From NCBI GenBank assembly GCA_963844965.1, contig CAWJQC010000007.1:192001-256000 (forward strand): a stretch of 64,000 nucleotides of DNA. The letters are read 5' to 3'. Position 1 is the stretch's first letter; each line of letters starts with the position of its first letter. Origin of the DNA: an uncultured bacterium (GTDB lineage Bacteria; Patescibacteriota; Minisyncoccia; UBA6257; 2-01-FULL-56-20). Shown here in pieces: positions 4,750 through 43,066 of the stretch. Under the pieces are notes generated by a model. That model ran no database searches. It saw only the letters and a list, made by a program, of their open reading frames with translations, and was not told the origin of the DNA. The position numbers were made by a program, and so were the translations under genes.

Positions 4750-5218
4750 TGTCCACCTCCGACCTTTGGAGATAGTGCGCTTCGCGGCAGTGATAACAGC
4801 GAACCTTCTTGTCTGCCGCTGCAACTGCATCAGCGAATTGCGCAGCCGCTTCCTCGTTGTCCCATTGGCCAAGTTCGCGCTCCGCCACGGGCTCCAGGAA
4901 GAAGATTTCCTTTTCCTTGCCGGAGACCTTGCCGACATGCCCGTCAACGCCGGGGTTTTTCGCTACGACTCTCGCGATTGCGATGCGGGTATCGTTGCGG
5001 TCAGCATTGGCGAACACGAAGCAATCGCCGGGTAGTATGGCGAAAAGAGCGTGTTCGCGGTTCGCGTATCCCTTGCGTGGGACGAAGATGGGCTTTTTGG
5101 ATTTTCCTTCGCGGTCACAGATGATGACCGCATCGCCGGTGTTGGTGTACCCACCGCCGCATTCCCAAGCGGCGGTAAGACGTGACTTCGTTCGGTGGAC
5201 GGTGACGGTAGTATCCAT
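4742..5218 (-). CDS. hypothetical protein (about 158 aa) with C-terminal CxxC
   Basis: Start MDTTVTV preceded by AAAGGA Shine-Dalgarno; C-terminal CYHCREAHY; no clear family. Confidence 0.45.
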   Translation of the reverse strand: MDTTVTVHRTKSRLTAAWECGGGYTNTGDAVIICDREGKSKKPIFVPRKGYANREHALFAILPGDCFVFANADRNDTRIAIARVVAKNPGVDGHVGKVSGKEKEIFFLEPVAERELGQWDNEEAAAQFADAVAAADKKVRCYHCREAHYLQRSEVDNG

Positions 5219-5548
5219 TGTCGTGTCCTTTCTTCTCTCGCGACCGATTTGAATTAGCACGCGAAGTGCTGTCGGTTGCGGCCTTGCAGGCTCCCTTTTC
5301 GTCGGGGAATGTCTCTGAACTTATTTTCTCAAAGAGCCCTTAAAGCGGCTGCTCAAATGGCTTGTGCGTCTGTTCTCCTAGCACCGGTTCTCAAAATCCC
5401 CTCATTGGAGGGGGTTTATTTTAACAGCTAGGATTTATCGTTTTCCTTCTCCAAAAAATTGGGTTGTGGGACGTTAGGGGTCAATGCACACAAAAAAAAC
5501 GACCCACGCAGTGCGTGAGTCATAAATTTTCAGCGAGTTCTGGTTTTC

Positions 5549-6274
5549 TCAGTATAAGCCCTTCGTTCTGAGGTGAGTGATTATCTTTTTGGCGATGACC
5601 ATCGGCAGTTCCCTCCGCCACATTATGCGCGTGTCCGTTCGCGGAAAAAGTTTCCAGATAGCCGTACCTTCTTTGGGATTGCCCTTGTCGTCTATTTCAA
5701 TCCTGAAATCCTGGAGTTTGAGTTCGTTTATCAGCCAATCGGCTGTGGGACGATATTCCAGGTGGGGGCCGAATTGCAGGTCTCCGTCCTTCATTCCAAT
5801 GATAGGTGACCTCGCGAAACCGCTGCACCACTGATTGACAATGGCCCTCTGCAGTTTTTCCTGGTTGTGGATTTTCGTGGAAGACCACAAAATTATGATG
5901 TCGTTCTTGTACCTTTCGCCCACGTAATAGCCGGCCGGCCATTTGCATCCCAAACCGATAGCGAAGCAGGTGCCATTGAACCTGACGACGCTGAAATATT
6001 CGTAACGCATGTAGGCCGTGCGCGAGTTGCAGTCGCCGGGCCGGGTATCGTCGGCGATTCTTGAAAACGCGCCGTCGTAGCTCCAATGATCTCCCGGGTC
6101 TTCCTTGGGAAAGAAAACCCTCGCCAATTCATTTTCGGTGAGAAGTTTGTAAACTTCCTCCACCACTTCTTCTCCGTAGAGGCCGCGTTGATTTGTAGCC
6201 CTGAGCGCGGCATCAATGTGCCTCACAAGAACTCCCCGAAGTTTCCACTTGAATTCCCGTATGTTCTGAAACAC
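5549..6274 (-). CDS. hypothetical protein (241 aa)
   Basis: Long ORF with good coding composition; no motif I can assign. Confidence 0.45.
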   Translation of the reverse strand: MFQNIREFKWKLRGVLVRHIDAALRATNQRGLYGEEVVEEVYKLLTENELARVFFPKEDPGDHWSYDGAFSRIADDTRPGDCNSRTAYMRYEYFSVVRFNGTCFAIGLGCKWPAGYYVGERYKNDIIILWSSTKIHNQEKLQRAIVNQWCSGFARSPIIGMKDGDLQFGPHLEYRPTADWLINELKLQDFRIEIDDKGNPKEGTAIWKLFPRTDTRIMWRRELPMVIAKKIITHLRTKGLY

Positions 6275-6359
6275 TGTCCACCTCCTGCGTTTCTATATAA
6301 CTGGTTAGTGCCACCTTGGATTGTAGTCGCCGAAACCACCGTCGTCAAGTTTTTAGGCG

Positions 6360-24654: not shown

Positions 24655-25200
24655 CGGCCTTTAGGCCGAGGATAAGGCGACCCCGTAGCCCCGAGCGAAG
24701 CGAGGGGCGGAGGGCTTATTTGCCTGTTCCCACTGGTTTCTGCCGGTGCGATAATGAAGATAATGCCCTCTGGATTCTGGCCAAGCAACCACAGCTATAC
24801 GCGATGTTTGTACCACGTTGTTTTCTGCCCAAAGTACCGCCGCTCGATACTGCGAGGGGACATGGTCGGGCGACTCAAGACATTGTTCTTTCAAGCCGCC
24901 AAGATGAATAAATGGTTCATCCATGAAGCGCAGATAATGCCCGACCATGTCCATCTATTGCTTCAAATTCCTGCTACCCTGACGGTTGCCAAAGCGGTGT
25001 TTTATCTCAAAGGCGGTACGTCCAGGGCTGTCAGAAAAGAATTTCCCGAGCTGGAAGAATTCCTCTGGGGAGACAGCTTGTGGCAGGATGGTTACTTTGC
25101 CGAAACCGTTGGCCGTCAAAACGAAAAAGCGATGAGAGAATATATCAGAAACCAGTGGGAACAGGAGCCGAACACAAGCCGCGGGCTTTAGCCCGCGGTG
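24655..25200 (+). mobile_element. IS200/IS605-family element (tnpA only) bounded by perfect 20-bp inverted repeats and GC-rich hairpins
   Basis: cctgttcccactggtttctg at 24723-24742 and its exact reverse complement at 25146-25165; hairpins at 24688-24708 and 25176-25199. Confidence 0.7.
24754..25191 (+). CDS. tnpA: IS200/IS605 Y1 (HUH) transposase TnpA / RAYT-like
   Basis: YHVVFCPKYRR N-terminus, HUH motif HVHLLL, catalytic Tyr region; 145 aa. Confidence 0.85.
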   Translation: MKIMPSGFWPSNHSYTRCLYHVVFCPKYRRSILRGDMVGRLKTLFFQAAKMNKWFIHEAQIMPDHVHLLLQIPATLTVAKAVFYLKGGTSRAVRKEFPELEEFLWGDSLWQDGYFAETVGRQNEKAMREYIRNQWEQEPNTSRGL

Positions 25201-25725: not shown

Positions 25726-26271
25726 TCACTTTACGTTTCTGATGAGCGCGTAAGCGGCGAGGCCGCCCACGAGAGCTGTGAAAAGCTGGGGCCAGCCCAT
25801 CATCGCGAGCAGGGCAGGGGGAATCTTTACGGGGAGAATTTTGGAGATTAGGAAGTAGGCAGCTCCGTAGAGCAGGGTGAATTTGAGGAGTGCGGCGAGG
25901 CCGATACCGAGAATGGCGTTTTTCCGGCGGGCATAATGAAAAATGACAATGAGAATGGTATTTCCCAGCATTATGAAAGGAATCATAGGCGCGAGCGGTG
26001 CGGGCAAAGTTCCGCTCGCGAAAGCAATGACGCTCGGTACGAGTCCCAAGAGTATTGCGCCCGCGGGGCCGAGGATAACGGTCGCGGCAAAAAGAGCGGC
26101 ATTAACAAAAGTTCCCGTTACGGCCTGACTGTGAATTGCGAGTGGCGCCAAAACCGTCGCTGCGAGAAGTGCGAGAAATATTGAAATCTTAGTGGGAACG
26201 TTTAACGAGAGCGCATATGATTCCATTGATTTAATTTTAGATGATGGAAGCCGGAAAATCAACGGCAACAT
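25726..26271 (-). CDS. integral membrane protein (ECF-transporter S-component-like)
   Basis: Five to six hydrophobic helices, small size; family uncertain. Confidence 0.45.
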   Translation of the reverse strand: MLPLIFRLPSSKIKSMESYALSLNVPTKISIFLALLAATVLAPLAIHSQAVTGTFVNAALFAATVILGPAGAILLGLVPSVIAFASGTLPAPLAPMIPFIMLGNTILIVIFHYARRKNAILGIGLAALLKFTLLYGAAYFLISKILPVKIPPALLAMMGWPQLFTALVGGLAAYALIRNVK

Positions 26272-26323
26272 TTCGGAATTTAGAATTGGCGGCTGTTTGT
26301 GTTAAAATCATATAAAACAAACC

Positions 26324-27112
26324 ATGAATGAAGTCGCCAAACTTATTGAACTTTTAAACAATAAAGCGAAGCTCACCGCTATGCTCGCTCCGTCGTTTCC
26401 GGTTATGTATGAGTATCCGCAAATCATCGGCAGGCTGAGGCAGTTGGGTTTTTCGCATGTTGTTGAAGTCGCGGCGGGCGCTAAAAGAACAAACGAGGCG
26501 GTCGTGAAGTTGCTGCGGGATGACCCTAAGTCGCGATTCATCACGAGTCCATGTCCGAGTTTTGTGCGTCTCGTGAGGACCAAACATCCGCAGCTTCTGC
26601 CGTACCTTGCGTTCAAGGCCGATTCGCCGATGGTCGCGACCGCGCGTATCGTGAAAGAAAAATTTCCCGACTGCCAGCCGGTTTTTATCGGTCCCTGCAT
26701 CGCCAAGAAACTTGAGGCCTCGGAGGATTATCCGGAACTCAATATTTTAGTCATAACCTACAGAGAGCTTGAGGTGGTTTTCAATACGTTCCATGTGGGG
26801 AATGCGGTTGCTCGGGTAGATGGTGGGTTTGACATCGCGGAACAGGGGACGCGCATTTATCCGACTGACGGCGGGCTCACGGAATCGAGCGGTGCGAGGA
26901 GTATTCTCGAGGACGAGGAAATAAGAATCGTTTCCGGATGGAAGAATTGCGAAGCGGCTCTCGCAGAATTTGAAAAAAATCCAAAAATTCGGCTGCTTGA
27001 TATTTTATTCTGCGAAGGCGGGTGCATCATGGGGCCGGGAATAGTAAGCGCCTTGCCGCTTGAGGAGCGCAAAAAGAAAATTATGGAGTTTTCGGCGAGA
27101 AGAGATTCATGA
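26324..27112 (+). CDS. [FeFe]-hydrogenase-like protein (H-cluster domain only; TSPCP variant of motif L1)
   Basis: Motifs TSPCPSF (L1-like), GPCIAKKLE (L2), CEGGCIMGPG (L3); no N-terminal ferredoxin domains. Confidence 0.6.
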   Translation: MNEVAKLIELLNNKAKLTAMLAPSFPVMYEYPQIIGRLRQLGFSHVVEVAAGAKRTNEAVVKLLRDDPKSRFITSPCPSFVRLVRTKHPQLLPYLAFKADSPMVATARIVKEKFPDCQPVFIGPCIAKKLEASEDYPELNILVITYRELEVVFNTFHVGNAVARVDGGFDIAEQGTRIYPTDGGLTESSGARSILEDEEIRIVSGWKNCEAALAEFEKNPKIRLLDILFCEGGCIMGPGIVSALPLEERKKKIMEFSARRDS

Positions 27113-27152
27113 TTGGAAAAATTTGCGGAAAAGCGGGAGAATGGGGATATTA

Positions 27153-27869
27153 ATGAAAATAAAAAAACCAATCAAGATTACACCCCAACGTTCCTCGACA
27201 GAACTGGACTACCACGCCTTACTCGCAAAATACCCCTGGATGGCTAAGCGAGGACAAAATTGTATCGTAAGCCCAGATAGTGATGGTCTGCTTTGCGGTC
27301 TCCTTATGTCGTACTATCTAGGATGGCGGATTTGCGGATTTTATGACGGGAAAGTTCTCGTTCTCGAAGATGGTTGCAATCCTCAAGAAAGTGTTTTTCT
27401 CGACATGGAAATATTCCGGCCGAATATCCGCAGCGTTGGACAACATATGGTCATGTATGACAAGGCGGACCTACCACCAAACTGGCAAAATTTCGACAAT
27501 TGTATTGCTGCAAATAATCTAAGGAATTACGACTTTAAAAATGATTTCAAGCTCAAATATCCGCTTGGAACAGTTCATCTCCTGCTTGCTATTTTAGGAC
27601 AGAGCAACACCATCCCTATCACCAAAAATGGAGTGAGCCCGTTATTATATACCGACGGAACTTTTAAGAATCAATTTAACTATCCAGAAAATTGCTTGAG
27701 TTGGTTGGATTTTTTGGGAGCAAATCAGGCAAATAGTCCACTTCAAAAAATCTTTCTAGACAGACATTATTCAACTTATGAATTAATGGTTGAGCTGAAA
27801 GATTTATTTTTGAAATTCAATGTCATTGGAGGAGGAAAACGTGGCGGTGATAAAATCAAGAATCTCTGA
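27153..27869 (+). CDS. hypothetical protein (low-GC island); speculative nuclease
   Basis: AT-rich ORF convergent with the methyltransferase gene; SPDSDG...LEDG...DME acidic motifs but no firm PD-(D/E)xK assignment. Confidence 0.4.
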   Translation: MKIKKPIKITPQRSSTELDYHALLAKYPWMAKRGQNCIVSPDSDGLLCGLLMSYYLGWRICGFYDGKVLVLEDGCNPQESVFLDMEIFRPNIRSVGQHMVMYDKADLPPNWQNFDNCIAANNLRNYDFKNDFKLKYPLGTVHLLLAILGQSNTIPITKNGVSPLLYTDGTFKNQFNYPENCLSWLDFLGANQANSPLQKIFLDRHYSTYELMVELKDLFLKFNVIGGGKRGGDKIKNL

Positions 27870-28155
27870 TTCGCGAGGAAATATTGTTAACATCGACTCT
27901 CGTACCAACCTCCTCAAGACAGAAACTAGGACTCAAGCAGAAAATCTTTTGGAAATGTTGGCAGACAAAACTAAGTGGACATTTACGTCCGCTCATTGGC
28001 CGTGGGGTCCATATCAAACCACTCGATTTAGAAAAGGCAGCGTAAAACCTGGGAAGGCTCGTTACAACGCGCTTCTTGCTCAAAATCCCATATCTCTCGC
28101 GATTATCAGCCGAGAGAGTATTGAATATACGATAGACGAAAACGGAATGTTCTAG
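27820..28155 (+). CDS. hypothetical protein
   Basis: ORF overlapping the previous gene's end; no recognisable domain. Confidence 0.3.
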   Translation: MSLEEENVAVIKSRISDSRGNIVNIDSRTNLLKTETRTQAENLLEMLADKTKWTFTSAHWPWGPYQTTRFRKGSVKPGKARYNALLAQNPISLAIISRESIEYTIDENGMF

Positions 28156-29609
28156 AGCAATCTGTTTTGTGACGCCAAAACGCATTCTTCCTTCATGCGT
28201 TTTTCTGCAATCGCACAGTACTCGGGCGCAATATCAATTCCGATATACTTGTGCCCCAAATTCTTTGCCGCAACGGTAGTAGTGCCACTTCCAACAAAAG
28301 GATCTAAGACGACCCCATTTTTGGGACAGAAGCATTGTATGAAATCGTACGGCAATTGATTTGGAAATGTTGCCGGATGTTGATGTTTTAGTCGGCTGCC
28401 GTCACCGGCCGTGAGATATTCCCAAATCGTCCCCCGGCACTTCATGGGATTTATCTTGATGGGTCGGGTGTTTATCCGTGTGCCATTTGTCAGGCGAGTG
28501 CCTCCGCCTGTCAATGTTTTCCCGCCCCACTTAGACGGTATTTTGAGTGGTTCTTTATTGAAATGCTGTGGCCTTTCTCCTTTTAGGAAAATTGGCATAT
28601 ATTCGTGGTCGACACGGAAGCGTTTATTCCACCAAGCGCCCTCCGCGCCGTACTTTCTATAGATGGTGGTCTCAAAAAGTTTAAATCCTACATTATCACA
28701 CCAATCTATTATTGTTTTGAAAGAGGTCAGCGATTTCGCGAAATTTTTTGTTTGATCTTGGATGACCATTACGGCTACTCCGCCGTCTTTCAGCGCTCTG
28801 TATATTTCTCTTCCTGTCTCGTGGAGATTAAATTTCGGCCTTCCTTTGTAGTCGCGTACGGCATCGTACGGAGGCGAAGTGACTACAATATCCACCGAAT
28901 TGGGGGGAAACTCTTTCATTATATCTACCGCATCGCCGCAAATGATTTTATTTAGCGGCAATTCTTCATATTTTTTAACTTCTTTGTGCTCGGGAAGTTG
29001 TATTGTTGACGCTCCTTCTTCCCGGATAACATCAAGCACTATTCCTTGGATTGAAACATCTCGTCCGTTTCGGAAGATAAGCGGCTCCATATTTTTATTG
29101 GCCGGTTGCAAACGAATATGTCCTCGTTCTTTATAAAATTTCTTAAGTGTTGCTTCGTGATTATCAATAAGCGCCACCACTTTTTGTCCGTTCTCGGCGA
29201 TTTTCTGCTGTTTTACCAAAACGATATCTCCATCGTTGATATTCTCATCAACCATGCTATTACCGACAACCTTTAGTGCGTAAATCTGGCCAGAACCGGG
29301 TAATCTACTTTGAGGAACAGCGATGGTCTCTCTGTCTTCTATGGCCTCAATCGGTTGGCCTGCGGCTATGGTTCCCAGCAGAGAAATACTTATCATCTTT
29401 TCTGATTTTGAAATTTCTATCCCTCGCGGCTGACTCGTCGCCTTTGTCAATAATCCTTTCTCTTTCAACGATTCAATATGCTGGTGAATAGTTGAGACCG
29501 AACTTAACCGGAAATGCTTTTTAATTTCCTCAAGCGATGGAGCGAACCCCCTTTTCTTGGTAAAACTTTTTATAAAATCCAAAATTTGTTTTTGGCGTTT
29601 GGTTAGCAT
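28152..29609 (-). CDS. LexA repressor (HTH + S24 autopeptidase) fused to beta-class N4-cytosine/N6-adenine DNA methyltransferase
   Basis: N-terminal 200 aa match LexA end to end: KRQKQILDFIK HTH, AAG cleavage site, Ser nucleophile GNSM (Asn in place of canonical Asp), catalytic Lys in IVLVKQQ. C-terminal half has MTase motif IV SPPY, motif I DPFVGSGTT and target-recognition region. Confidence 0.8.
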   Translation of the reverse strand: MLTKRQKQILDFIKSFTKKRGFAPSLEEIKKHFRLSSVSTIHQHIESLKEKGLLTKATSQPRGIEISKSEKMISISLLGTIAAGQPIEAIEDRETIAVPQSRLPGSGQIYALKVVGNSMVDENINDGDIVLVKQQKIAENGQKVVALIDNHEATLKKFYKERGHIRLQPANKNMEPLIFRNGRDVSIQGIVLDVIREEGASTIQLPEHKEVKKYEELPLNKIICGDAVDIMKEFPPNSVDIVVTSPPYDAVRDYKGRPKFNLHETGREIYRALKDGGVAVMVIQDQTKNFAKSLTSFKTIIDWCDNVGFKLFETTIYRKYGAEGAWWNKRFRVDHEYMPIFLKGERPQHFNKEPLKIPSKWGGKTLTGGGTRLTNGTRINTRPIKINPMKCRGTIWEYLTAGDGSRLKHQHPATFPNQLPYDFIQCFCPKNGVVLDPFVGSGTTTVAAKNLGHKYIGIDIAPEYCAIAEKRMKEECVLASQNRLL

Positions 29610-29749
29610 AGTTTGATTATACCAGCATCCCCAATCTTTTGCCTGTGGATAACTTTCGGTTTATTTTCGGTATGGTTTATGTTATAATGTAATCAACAAC
29701 AAAAGGCGTAAGGTACCAAGAAAATAGAGCAAAAATTTAGTTTTTAAAC

Positions 29750-30226
29750 ATGTGGCAATTTACCGAACAATATAAAAGGGTTGAAAGGTGGCACGCTAGA
29801 CTAAAAGCAATCTGTCGGAAAGTTCCAAAAGATATTGGAGACGATGAAGACATTCAAGGCAGAGATGACATTTTGGCGTTTTTTCAAAATTGTTACCATC
29901 TGAAAGATTGGGTTGAGAATGATGGTTCATGCCAAATTGCCGACAAGAAAAATGTAGTCGAAAATTTCATTAAAAATTCAGAATTTTTAAAGGTGTGCAA
30001 AGATGTTTGCAATGCGTCTAAGCACTTAGAGGTGGGACATCAAAGAATAGATCCGAGCGAGATTGTTAATTATGAGTTTTTTATATCAGGACCAAGTTTT
30101 TCTAACGGTGTTGTTACGAAACGCAATTTTAAAATTAGAGAACAGTATGAGGCGTTAGATCTCGCAGATAAATGTATGGGTGAGTGGCACGACTTTTTTA
30201 ATAAACAAGGAATGTCTTGGTCATGA
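29750..30226 (+). CDS. hypothetical protein (island cargo)
   Basis: 158-aa ORF preceded by an extended -10 TGTTATAAT; no domain recognised. Confidence 0.4.
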   Translation: MWQFTEQYKRVERWHARLKAICRKVPKDIGDDEDIQGRDDILAFFQNCYHLKDWVENDGSCQIADKKNVVENFIKNSEFLKVCKDVCNASKHLEVGHQRIDPSEIVNYEFFISGPSFSNGVVTKRNFKIREQYEALDLADKCMGEWHDFFNKQGMSWS

Positions 30227-30331
30227 TTGCCTACCCCATAATCCGAAAATCCCACGAATCCTGCGAAAAAGCGAAAGAATTATTAGAAGAAGCCAAACGA
30301 AAGGTCGAGGAAATGATAGAAAAGAAATAAA

Positions 30332-30628
30332 ATGCCCAAATTTAGTAGGCTCAAAAAATTTACGAAAACGAACATTGAGAAAATACCTAAAAATAAATCA
30401 ATAGTATATAAGCTTACAAATACTGCTGGCAAAAACTTATATACGGGTATTGCTGGACGTGGCAGAACCGTTAAGCGCCTGCTCGAACACAAAAAACTTA
30501 AGAAGGACGAGATAAAGGGGGCGTCTCGTTTTAAGATCGCTCAAGTATCTACCAAAAAGCGAGCGGCTCAGATTGAAAAGCAAATTATAAAAAGGGAAAA
30601 ACCAGAGTTTAACATCCAGCATAAGTAA
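30332..30628 (+). CDS. GIY-YIG nuclease domain small protein
   Basis: IVYKLTN...LYTGIAG...RLLEH pattern (GIY-YIG core with Arg and Glu). Confidence 0.55.
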   Translation: MPKFSRLKKFTKTNIEKIPKNKSIVYKLTNTAGKNLYTGIAGRGRTVKRLLEHKKLKKDEIKGASRFKIAQVSTKKRAAQIEKQIIKREKPEFNIQHK

Positions 30629-30648
30629 ATTATGCTATAATTTATATT

Positions 30649-31452
30649 ATGAAAACCATTAAAGAATTACTGGAACTTTCGGGGAAAACGGCGATCGTAA
30701 CCGGCGGGGCGGCCGGCATCGGTTTTGGCGTGAGTTCGCGCCTCGCGGAAGCGGGTGCGAACGTCCTTATCGCGGATATGAACGCGGAGAACGCGGAAAA
30801 GGCGAAAAAAGAATTGTTGAGCGGCGGCTGGAAGGCGGAGGCCGTGCATGCAGACGTTTCAAACGAGGATGACGTTCGGAAAATGGTGGAGAAAGCGGTT
30901 GACGCTTTCGGCGGCGTGGACATTCTCGTGAACAACGCCGGAATTTATCCGAGCATCCCCGTGATGAATATGTCGGCGGCGGATTTTGAAAAAGTTATCG
31001 CCGTTAATCTTAAGGGCGTTTTCCTTTGCACGAAAAAAGCGGCGGAGCGGATGATATCGCAGGGGCGCGGCGGGAAAATTATTAACATCACTTCCATTGA
31101 CGCTCTGCATCCTTCGTCCGTCGGCCTTGCCCACTACGATGCTTCCAAACATGGCGTCTGGGGTTTCACGAAGAACGTGGCTTTAGAGCTCGCACCGCAC
31201 AATATCTGGGTGAATGCCGTGGCTCCGGGCGGCATAGCGACTCCGGGAGTTGCCGATTCGCAGAAAACGGCTCCGACCGCGGTCGGAGTGGATATGAAGA
31301 AAGTGCTTGAAGGATTTCTCGCCAAAATCCCGATGAAGCGGATGGGGGAGCCGGACGATATCGGCAAGGTTGTGCTTTTTCTCGCCTCGGAAATGTCTTC
31401 TTATATGACGGGCAGCCAGATAGTGGTGGACGGCGGATATTTGCTGATGTAA
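30649..31452 (+). CDS. SDR-family oxidoreductase (FabG-like)
   Basis: TGGAAGIGFG cofactor motif and catalytic YDASK. Confidence 0.85.
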   Translation: MKTIKELLELSGKTAIVTGGAAGIGFGVSSRLAEAGANVLIADMNAENAEKAKKELLSGGWKAEAVHADVSNEDDVRKMVEKAVDAFGGVDILVNNAGIYPSIPVMNMSAADFEKVIAVNLKGVFLCTKKAAERMISQGRGGKIINITSIDALHPSSVGLAHYDASKHGVWGFTKNVALELAPHNIWVNAVAPGGIATPGVADSQKTAPTAVGVDMKKVLEGFLAKIPMKRMGEPDDIGKVVLFLASEMSSYMTGSQIVVDGGYLLM

Positions 31453-31549
31453 TAAACGACGAATTTTCTTCGTAAAGTATTCCGCTATTGATATTTTGAA
31501 TGAAGTTAGTTATGATATGACACAGTCCTGAATTGATAAGGAGGGAGCG

Positions 31550-32844
31550 TTGAAGACAAAATATAGAATATTAGATACAAGCAGAGTTCTGGGGATAATC
31601 TGCGCCGGCGGCGACGGAACCAGAATTGAGCCGCTTTCAAGATACAGAGCCAAACCGGCCATTCCGATCGGCGGCAGCCACCGGCTGATAGACATCGCGC
31701 TTTCAAATAGCCTGAATTCCGGATCACGCACAACTGCGTGATCGTCCAGAAACGTCCCCAATCTCTTGTCGCGCACCTTGACGGCTACTCCAACGGCGTG
31801 GCGCAGATGCGCGGGCAGTTCATCCACACGCTTTCTCCTCCGAGAGAGGAGGAGAGATTTTTCGCGTCGGATGTTGATTCGTTCATCCAGCTCCGCGGCC
31901 ACCTTGTGGCTGAGGGTTTTGATATCGTCCTCATAACTATGGCCGACCAGGTGGTAAAAATAGATTACCGGCAGGTTATTGAGAGTTTACTTGAGGGGAA
32001 CGCGGACGCCGTCATGGTGTACAACGCCATGCCGGTTAAGGTCGCGAGTGGCGCCCTTGGCGTGATGGAAGTGGACAGCGACGATGCCGTGATGGGCATG
32101 GAAGAAAAACCGCGGGAGCCGAAAGAAATTCCGGGGCGGCCAGGTTTTTGCGTGGCAAATTTAGCCATGTATGCCGTTAAAATGGACGTTTTCGGCGATA
32201 TGCTGGACTACGTTCAAGGGCATCACGAACCGGAAAGCACGCTTTCCAATTCCGGCATTCCCTGGCTCATTAAGAATCGGAAGGTGCTTGGCTACGATCT
32301 CGGCGACAATGTGGTTGTCGGCGCTTCCGAGCGGGAAAAGAATTATTTTGCCGATACGGGAACCGTTGACGCCTGGTTTGATGTGCAGATGAAAATGTGC
32401 GGCCGCAATCCCGCTTTCAATTTTTACTCGCGGGACTGGCCGATATACACCGCGCCTCGCTGGCCGATGAGTTCGGCGAAAGTGGACGACGCCAGACATA
32501 TTTCCGAAGTTCTTTTCGGATGGGGCGTGATCTGCGAAGACAGAGTTGTTGTGGAAAAAAGCGTGGTGAGCACAGGAGTCAACGTGAGACACGACAGCTC
32601 GATAACGAATTGCGTGATTCTTGATGGCGCGGATATAGGGCCGGGTTGCGCGTTGGACAGGGTGGTGATCGAAAAGAACATTAAGATACCTGCCGGGACC
32701 AAACTCTCGCCGCTTGATCCGCCGGATTCCACGATCAAGTTCGCCGACCTCTACGCGAAGATTAAGGCCGGCGAGACCTGCGAGAACACTCCAGTTTTGA
32801 CTGACGGGGGAGCGCTGGTTTTCCCCAAATTCTACAAGTTTTAG
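31550..32844 (+). pseudogene. glgC: glucose-1-phosphate adenylyltransferase with a 1-nt deletion frameshift near codon 60 (sequencing error possible)
   Basis: N-terminal [31 protein letters not shown]...LNSG ends at TGA 31739-31741. Conserved GlgC continuation ([15 protein letters not shown]...) resumes in the -1 frame; missing A in ggAatc at about 31728. Confidence 0.75.
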
Positions 32845-34395: not shown

Positions 34396-34466
34396 GCCAC
34401 CTTAGCTCAGCGGTAGAGCAGCACTTTCGTAAAGTGACGGTCCCGGTTCAAATCCGGGAGGTGGCT
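34396..34466 (+). tRNA. tRNA, anticodon most likely CGT (Thr); CCA not encoded
   Basis: Acceptor gccacct/aggtggc, D arm gctc-agcggta-gagc, anticodon loop ttCGTaa, T arm cccgg-ttcaaat-ccggg. Confidence 0.75.
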
Positions 34467-34598
34467 CAAAACCGACCGGATTTGAACGAAGGGTGGGTCG
34501 GAGGGAAAGCGGCCGGGTTCCCTCCGTGCGGGAAATTATTCAGAACCGTGGGTTCTGAAAGCGCAGCCCCGAGCTTGTCGAGGGGCGAGCAGTGAAAT

Positions 34599-42992: not shown

Positions 42993-43066
42993 TGGCTGCG
43001 GGGCAGGGACTCGAACCCCGATACCGGCGTCCAGAGCGCCGTGTCCTACCGTTAGACGACCCCGCA
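42993..43066 (-). tRNA. tRNA-Gln (anticodon CTG), CCA encoded
   Basis: Reverse complement folds as acceptor tgcgggg/ccccgca, anticodon stem cggcg-ctCTGga-cgccg, T arm cgggg-ttcgagt-ccctg, 3' GCCA. Confidence 0.8.

Follow-up and report, generated by a model that had tools for sequence, protein, structure and literature searches.

The 64,000-nucleotide (nt) stretch of DNA analysed here (the window; positions 192,001–256,000 of contig CAWJQC010000007.1, assembly GCA_963844965.1, from an uncultured member of the Patescibacteriota) encodes on its minus strand a protein of 485 amino acids (aa) in which a LexA repressor and a DNA methyltransferase form a single chain, with an operator-like direct repeat upstream of the gene and a convergent partner gene at its 3′ end (Table 1). 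Pfam placed LexA_DNA_bind (PF01726) at residues 2–63 (E 2e-17), Peptidase_S24 (PF00717) at residues 77–191 (E 2e-28) and N6_N4_Mtase (PF01555) at residues 239–470 (E 4e-37), in agreement with a preliminary description of this DNA, made from its letters and reading frames, which had proposed an in-frame fusion of a complete LexA to a beta-class methyltransferase. The LexA half, a winged helix-turn-helix (HTH) followed by an S24 peptidase domain, matched the lexA equivalog model TIGR00498 over residues 2–197 with 194.5 bits against a cut-off of 110.95 (NCBIfam), and its closest solved structure is the LexA of Thermotoga maritima (3K2Z, E 2e-36). In an alignment to Escherichia coli LexA, Ala83-Gly84 (IAAGQP) falls on the scissile bond A84-G85, Ser118 (GNSM) on the nucleophile S119 and Lys156 (ATLKKF) on the general base K156. 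The cleavage site and serine had been correctly identified before; the lysine had been sought in LVKQQ, whose K aligns with H-K-T of E. coli LexA, and the Asn of GNSM, regarded as an unusual replacement of Asp, is no anomaly, as E. coli has GMSM and the orthologues have N (83), D (15), S (13) or other residues at this position.

The motif order of the C-terminal half, with motif IV (SPPY, residues 245–248) ahead of motif I (DPFVGSGTT, residues 436–444), is that of beta-class enzymes, as already recognised in the preliminary description, and PADLOC assigned the domain to oMTase/MTase_II. Its closest solved structures are TTHA0409 (2ZIE), the N4-cytosine methyltransferases 8S9M/8S9N and M.PvuII, and a TSPPY motif is common to the fusion, 8S9M/8S9N and TTHA0409. 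The SPPY motif and the similarity to 8S9M/8S9N and PvuII suggest, as a lead only, that the enzyme is probably N4-cytosine specific. An AlphaFold2 model of the whole fusion (36-sequence alignment) had a predicted local distance difference test score (pLDDT) of 53 and was unusable for judging contacts between the domains.

The orthologue set comprised the best 120 database clusters, with 70–100% identity to the window protein and lengths of 476–501 aa, and all three domains lie in one chain in every cluster except for one partial sequence. These clusters derive from Paceibacterota, Liptonbacteria, Wolfebacteria, Portnoybacteria and other Patescibacteria. A species scan (one genome per species) found a relative in 247 genomes, of which 80 loci were kept (L numbers below); about 60 of these encode the full colinear fusion, nearly all of them in Patescibacteria. 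The architecture, which the preliminary description could not match to anything familiar, is therefore a recurrent one, and the artefact it had raised as an objection, a missed stop or a frameshift in assembly or sequencing that joined two separate genes, has practically no probability left: the frame is uninterrupted and at least 120 clusters and about 60 genomes are colinear, linker included. Ala83, Gly84, Ser118 and Lys156 are invariant in 120/120 orthologues, and the SPPY and DPFxGSGTT motifs show no or almost no variation. Compared with the window protein, the orthologues were on average least identical in the DNA-binding domain (56%), followed by the linker (60%), the S24 domain (77%) and the methyltransferase (81%). 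The LexA half is complete, and its cleavage machinery is under strong purifying selection. Public annotation (NCBI) names the orthologues either 'transcriptional repressor LexA' or 'site-specific DNA-methyltransferase'.

Table 1 Features of the LexA-methyltransferase locus (positions refer to the window)
Feature	Position	Strand	Details
LexA-methyltransferase fusion gene	28152–29609	−	Single open reading frame (ORF), 0 internal stops; Pfam and NCBIfam domains; at least 120 colinear orthologue clusters
LexA winged-HTH DNA-binding domain, residues 1–70	29400–29609	−	PF01726; recognition helix S-V-S-T-I-H-Q-H-I
Ala83-Gly84 self-cleavage bond, codons	29358–29363	−	Alignment to E. coli LexA
S24 peptidase and dimerisation domain, residues 77–197	29019–29381	−	PF00717; Ser118 at 29256–29258, Lys156 at 29142–29144
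LexA-to-methyltransferase linker, residues 198–225	28935–29018	−	No domain match
Beta-class N4/N6 DNA methyltransferase domain, residues 226–485	28155–28934	−	PF01555; SPPY at 28866–28877, DPFVGSGTT at 28278–28304
Putative LexA operator	29654–29682	+	Direct repeat TTTCGGT-TTAT-TTTCGGT (29654–29671) and degenerate third unit TTTATGT (29676–29682); 11-bp period
Putative extended −10 of the fusion gene (TGgTATAAT)	29616–29624	−	6 nt ahead of ATG; read from the sequence
Putative extended −10 of the divergent promoter (TGtTATAAT)	29680–29688	+	Directly downstream of the operator, towards orf158; read from the sequence
Perfect DnaA-box 9-mer TTATCCACA	29644–29652	−	Abuts the operator, at the −35 position of the fusion promoter; sole copy in the window
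Convergent partner gene, DHH-like putative nuclease, about 324 aa when intact	27141–28155	+	1-nt insertion at 27861–27864, stop at 27867–27869; 4-nt overlap with the 3′ end of the fusion gene
orf158, divergent gene downstream of the operator-containing promoter	29750–30226	+	No family match; module membership uncertain

The preliminary description had pointed to 29610–29750 as the place for a LexA box, and an operator-like element does lie there, although it is a direct repeat with an 11-bp period rather than a canonical palindrome. This repeat is the only exact copy of TTTCGGT-N4-TTTCGGT in the 64 kb. The upstream regions of 59 fusion genes share a direct repeat of the same period with the consensus AACTTTCGATTTATTTTCTATAA, found by a simple pattern in 50/59 and present in the rest as obvious variants such as GTTCGGG and GCTCGGG; it was not found at stand-alone methyltransferase loci. 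At most orthologous loci the repeat occupies the spacer between a −35-like hexamer and TATAAT, usually overlapping the −10. A −10-like hexamer lies 5–8 nt ahead of the start codon at 32/59 loci, and because of this short distance the fusion mRNAs are suggested to be leaderless.

The operator unit partitions perfectly by type of recognition helix, and both units of the repeat change together. Helices of type S-T-x-H-Q-H go with TTTCGGT (15/15 loci, the window among them), H-E-H and similar helices with TTTCGGG or GCTCGGG (7 loci), and A-H-[F/Y/H]-H and its relatives with TTTC[T/G]AT (36 loci). Such covariation is expected if the repeat is read by a homodimer.

Several scans suggest that control by this element would be local rather than global, with a single operator per window. 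Credible additional operators were absent from 760 kb of related loci in about 80 genomes; one candidate, at position 319 of L050, was dismissed as a chance match, lying antisense inside a glutamyl-tRNA-synthetase-like ORF. None of the patterns GAAC-N4-GTTC, CTGT-N8-ACAG, TGTTC-N4-GAACA and GTTC-N7-GTTC occurs in the 64-kb window, and the one GAAC-N7-GAAC, at 25159, has no relevant promoter anywhere near it. A metagenome scan with ACTTTCGGT-N4-TTTCGGTA returned at least 121 sites; among the matches listed, 83/121 are no more than 250 nt away from a LexA-type N-terminus, and another 4 are found where a contig breaks off at the beginning of a gene of this kind. One operator with a TATAAT (L096, 667–687) stands directly ahead of a restriction-enzyme-like gene, a homologue of the 224-aa gene of L074 described below, so that in some systems the nuclease gene may be under the same operator control as the LexA-methyltransferase. 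Three of the listed sites (L145 and L183, 67–70% G+C; L110, 64% G+C) have the repeat 1–10 nt ahead of imuA-like or dnaE2-like genes (NF033429 at E 1e-12, below its cut-off; PRK05672 at E 2e-17). Because it precedes such genes, TTTCGGT-N4-TTTCGGT appears to be a genuine SOS box in other bacteria as well, suggesting that another, GC-rich lineage uses a direct-repeat SOS box that has gone undescribed or unrecognised. Direct-repeat LexA boxes are established, e.g. GTTC-N7-GTTC in Alphaproteobacteria (PMC8565304).

An exhaustive HMMER search with residues 1–205 revealed that the nearest relatives of the LexA half (50–71% identity) are nearly all proteins of 348–890 aa with an N-terminal LexA, while ordinary LexAs of about 200 aa start at 49% identity or lower. 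Pfam, applied to 53 of the long representatives, found LexA_DNA_bind and S24 in every one; in these, Gly84, Ser118 and Lys156 are invariant, and LexA is joined to C-terminal domains of the N6_N4_Mtase (31 representatives), Eco57I-type (7), D12/Dam-type (5), N6_Mtase (5), MmeI-type (4) and C5 DNA_methylase (3) families. By these domain assignments, one LexA clade forms the N-terminus of DNA methyltransferases from at least five unrelated families.

Individual loci illustrate how readily the parts appear to be exchanged. The 6.3-kb contig L040 holds two distinct LexA-methyltransferase fusions, at 564–2429 and 4992–6299: the first, of 621 aa, has another type of methyltransferase and a 249-aa restriction-enzyme-like gene downstream, and the second is preceded by a different 7+4 direct repeat, TGACACC-CGTA-TGACACC. 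A presumed stand-alone LexA on this contig was rejected, being another, longer LexA-methyltransferase fusion. L074 combines LexA with a DPPF-type methyltransferase and a different convergent restriction-enzyme-like gene (224 aa, 4-nt overlap). The DNA-binding domain of the window protein is 77% identical to those of L041, L074 and L076, where the methyltransferase domains are just 29–37% identical, whereas loci with 84–87% identical methyltransferases have DNA-binding domains of 43–55% identity. The domain mosaicism is clear in these comparisons, and it indicates that modules are shuffled between methyltransferase families.

At five loci (L053, L055, L057, L059 and L071) the two functions are unfused: an S24 repressor of 205 aa, whose HTH is different and whose putative cleavage region reads TANCG/AANCG, ends at TAG, a methyltransferase gene with its own TATAAT follows about 20 nt later, and the convergent partner lies downstream as in the fused module. 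These loci bear on the idea, put forward in the preliminary description, that LexA is a tether holding the methyltransferase at LexA boxes, where it would methylate DNA close by, until cleavage frees it for genome-wide methylation. The covalent link between binder and enzyme would permit this in principle, and cleavage would leave an S24-methyltransferase fragment without its HTH; yet the unfused genes keep the same layout, so tethering is not required, and there is exactly one operator in the 64 kb of the window and one per related locus, always at the module's own promoter. A DNA-binding anchor that positions the enzyme thus finds little support, and we regard it as very improbable.

Two further loci (L051 and L070, 6001–7032 in each) attach only the LexA winged HTH (residues about 2–63) to the methyltransferase; they lack the S24 domain and retain the DnaA box and direct-repeat operator. 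They show that DNA binding without cleavage is viable, as would be the case if the S24 domain served for dimerisation only, or cleaved on a signal other than RecA, and the protein were a constitutive methyltransferase under autoregulation, unconnected with DNA damage; recA was likewise not seen in the 64-kb window. Dimerisation alone would not, however, need the invariance of Ala-Gly, Ser and Lys in all 120 orthologues and of Gly, Ser and Lys in the 53 distant representatives, and we consider this explanation quite doubtful.

The module appears to be horizontally mobile. The fusion is 72–82% identical across lineages (79% to a copy from Levybacteria), whereas the prolyl-tRNA synthetase of the window is only 57–66% identical to those of named Jorgensen-, Yanofsky- and Liptonbacteria, a Parcubacteria-type host; horizontal spread is suggested because the fusion is more conserved than this housekeeping gene across the same lineages. 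The module region has a G+C content of 0.42 against about 0.50. The two halves occur together in no phage or plasmid record of the collections searched. On a broader scale, G+C falls to 0.42–0.47 over 26001–32000, compared with about 0.50 elsewhere, an interval that covers the module and its neighbours and fits an acquired island.

These observations also bear on whether the fusion is simply the sole, global SOS LexA of its host, with the methyltransferase as an SOS-linked passenger or epigenetic effector. Its score above the equivalog cut-off, the LexA name given to orthologues by NCBI and the repeat ahead of imuA- and dnaE2-like SOS genes in other bacteria are all compatible with that role. 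A global regulator would hardly be expected, however, to have a single operator in the 64 kb with no further site in the 760 kb flanking the gene in about 80 genomes, to occur as two fusions with different helices and operators on one contig (L040), to diverge in operator specificity among close relatives with its domains shuffled between methyltransferase families, or to show the horizontal mobility indicated by the comparison with prolyl-tRNA synthetase. The 64-kb window itself holds housekeeping genes and no DNA-repair genes at which an SOS regulon could show. On the evidence of the window and these flanks, we consider a global role unlikely.

The methyltransferase is accompanied by the convergent partner gene whether it is fused to LexA or stands alone. 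The partner is one gene of about 324 codons at 55–60 of the 80 related loci, in Bacteria and Archaea, and the 3′ ends of the two genes overlap by 4 or 9 nt at about 40 of 54 loci. Stand-alone methyltransferases (67–73% identity) with the partner were found in Pacearchaeota, Woesearchaeota, Bacteroidales, Ignavibacteria and WOR-3. The partner family comprises about 620 clusters without annotation. Searches of Pfam, PDB sequences, PADLOC, PHROGs, NCBIfam, plasmids and phages gave no match, including to any restriction-enzyme family, and the protein is 'hypothetical' in every source. A confident AlphaFold2 model of the orthologue P0121 (pLDDT 94) has a DHH-like fold, and the partner is a candidate nuclease of no known family. 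On the strength of this linkage, and not of a family match, methyltransferase and partner would constitute a mobile restriction-modification-like module.

In the genome studied here, the two module genes are not both intact. The partner is split into ORFs at 27060–27869 and 27820–28155 by a frameshift (AAG-AATC-TCTGATTCG in the window against AAG-ATT-TCTGATTCC in L001), a region that the orthologues read through in one frame (GGDKIKISDSRGN), and the same truncated product is present in the deposited assembly (P0173, 242 aa). With its partner frameshifted, the fusion in this window is therefore probably a solitary methyltransferase.

Given the architecture, the residue conservation, the gene linkage and the operator with its covariation, all of which are directly observed, the reading that we favour, and hold to be reasonably probable, is that the fusion is a bifunctional protein: a DNA methyltransferase that carries a complete LexA as its own autorepressor, which would be released by RecA-triggered cleavage. 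The LexA part would dimerise through its S24 domain and bind TTTCGGT-N4-TTTCGGT in the promoter region of the module. At most loci, where the repeat lies in the −35/−10 spacer and over the −10, the enzyme would thereby repress its own leaderless transcript, a negative autoregulation of the SsoII/EcoRII type with an added damage input from LexA self-cleavage. Because this controller keeps an intact Ala-Gly/Ser/Lys apparatus, RecA filaments formed at DNA breaks should cut it at Ala83-Gly84 and so remove the winged HTH; the operator would be vacated and synthesis of the methyltransferase would rise. The released N-terminal fragment would end in ...TIAA, which resembles the ...VAA by which the E. 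coli LexA fragment is targeted to ClpXP. Because the 3′ ends of the two genes overlap and leave no space for a terminator, transcription running into the partner nuclease gene would interfere with its expression, and on balance self-restriction would be held back. Two elements of this scheme have precedents, in that unbalanced Type II restriction-modification systems induce SOS and some methyltransferases autoregulate through N-terminal HTH domains (PMC3874152).

The promoter layout of the window itself fits this scheme less well than that of most relatives. Its intergenic plus strand reads TGTGGATAAC (29644–29653), the repeat (29654–29671), TATGGTTTATGT and TATAAT (29683–29688), a box-operator-promoter cassette that faces orf158, away from the fusion; in L041 and L031 it is the fusion itself that this type of cassette drives, and the inverted operator layout is common to the window, L074, L076 and L006. 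In the window, the fusion would use its own extended −10 promoter, which a consensus promoter scan did not list, there being no match to a −35 hexamer.

Several points weigh against the autorepressor model. The operator of the window lies about 45–62 nt upstream of the fusion start codon and not over the core promoter of the fusion, and it occupies the −35/spacer of the divergent promoter; autorepression in this genome may consequently be weak or indirect, with the protein mainly repressing the divergent promoter. Operator autorepression that couples the methyltransferase to DNA damage, one of the possibilities raised in the preliminary description, is thus favoured insofar as a direct repeat is present and covaries with the helix, and is qualified by the position of that repeat upstream of the fusion −10. 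The covariation between helix and operator is inflated or confounded by the shared ancestry of the loci, and the model leaves unexplained a conserved DnaA-box-like element beside the operator. Hardly any stand-alone LexAs come closer than about 49% identity, as would suit a global LexA. Finally, DNA binding, repression, RecA-dependent cleavage, methylation specificity, nuclease activity of the partner and the feedback logic are all inferred.

The DnaA-box-like element is a widespread component of these promoters, being perfect in 43/59 and with one mismatch in 12/59 fusion promoters against a chance expectation of 0.0013 per locus. It also occurs at the unfused repressor-plus-methyltransferase loci and at L052, and in the related loci compared was not found at stand-alone methyltransferases outside Patescibacteria. 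The box may couple expression to DnaA, or it may be the site of another factor. There is also a more inclusive and more tentative reading, which we consider possible but short of probable: LexA-methyltransferase fusions would be widespread, undescribed DNA-damage-sensing controllers of restriction-modification modules in Patescibacteria, whose RecA-triggered self-cleavage would de-repress the methyltransferase and damp the nuclease through the convergent overlap (an autoimmunity brake within the antitoxin), with the partner as the first DHH-like restriction nuclease and the DnaA box adding replication-coupled control.

Several described systems share features with the fusion. It resembles LexA proper (TIGR00498; E. 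coli and T. maritima, 1JHH and 3K2Z) in its winged HTH and S24 domains, Ala-Gly bond, Ser/Lys dyad and score above the equivalog cut-off, and in having a putative operator in its own promoter region, direct-repeat boxes being used by some LexA lineages (PMC8565304). It differs in its 280-residue C-terminal methyltransferase (485 aa compared with about 200 aa), in belonging to a mobile two-gene module with no regulon detectable beyond its own promoter (in the 64 kb and the 760 kb of flanks), and in that several differently specific copies can share one contig. M.SsoII-type methyltransferases are C5-cytosine enzymes, whereas the catalytic part of the fusion belongs to PF01555 and not to PF00145. 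Like the fusion, M.SsoII, M.Ecl18kI, M.EcoRII, M.MspI and M.ScrFIA carry an N-terminal DNA-binding domain on a methyltransferase; this domain binds an operator over the enzyme's own promoter and represses its own gene (PMC3874152), the same autorepression logic as is proposed for the fusion. Their domain is, however, a short HTH (about 70 residues) that lacks both a protease domain and any damage input, in contrast to the full, self-cleavage-type LexA described here. C proteins (C.PvuII, C.Esp1396I; PMC2175313, PMC3874152) are likewise dedicated, module-specific transcription factors with diversifying operator specificity, and the unfused repressor of the L053 type resembles them as a separate small gene beside the methyltransferase gene; they are small XRE-type HTH activator-repressors without a peptidase domain, act at palindromic C-boxes and usually share a transcript with the restriction gene. 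The fusion instead uses a LexA winged HTH, is joined to the enzyme and has a direct-repeat operator. In CapH/CapP of the cyclic oligonucleotide-based antiphage signalling system (CBASS) and in phage CI-type S24 repressors, a defence or mobile module is coupled to DNA damage through a repressor that proteolysis inactivates. These regulators are separate proteins, the protease of CapH/CapP being a distinct metallopeptidase, and to our knowledge none is fused to the enzyme of its module.

A description of a LexA-methyltransferase fusion was not found in full-text searches of the literature, an earlier mention being possible in the work of Sanchez-Osuna, Barbe and Erill on the Patescibacteria SOS network (2017, Environ Microbiol 19:3465). 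Autoregulating methyltransferases and self-cleaving S24 repressors are each already known; what appears to be new is that the two are combined, that this combination recurs across methyltransferase families, and that it has a DHH-like partner. Restriction-modification systems need methylation ahead of cleavage, for which C proteins, HTH-bearing methyltransferases, promoter methylation and antisense RNA are the known means. If the autorepressor reading is correct, a self-cleaving LexA on the methyltransferase would add a direct damage input, through which breaks, from self-restriction or otherwise, would raise protection. That one LexA clade is joined to at least five methyltransferase families and that the operator co-evolves with the helix suggest that the arrangement has been selected. 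For annotation, it follows that Patescibacteria proteins named 'LexA' may not report any SOS regulon, and the partner family is a candidate new nuclease family.

A homologue of orf158 was found at none of the 80 related loci. Behind the operator-containing promoter, after orf158, a gene at 30332–30628 (plus strand) encodes a GIY-YIG nuclease-like protein of 98 aa (Pfam E 1e-5); in L023, a homologue of this gene is likewise divergent beside the fusion. On the other side, a 262-aa protein (26324–27112, plus strand) consists of the C-terminal domain of the [FeFe]-hydrogenase large subunit alone (Pfam E 2e-34), its gene ending 28–40 nt ahead of the likely start of the partner. Apart from two tRNA genes, no Rfam family reached its gathering score in the window; these encode tRNA-Thr(CGT) (34396–34467, plus strand) and tRNA-Gln(CTG) (42993–43066, minus strand).

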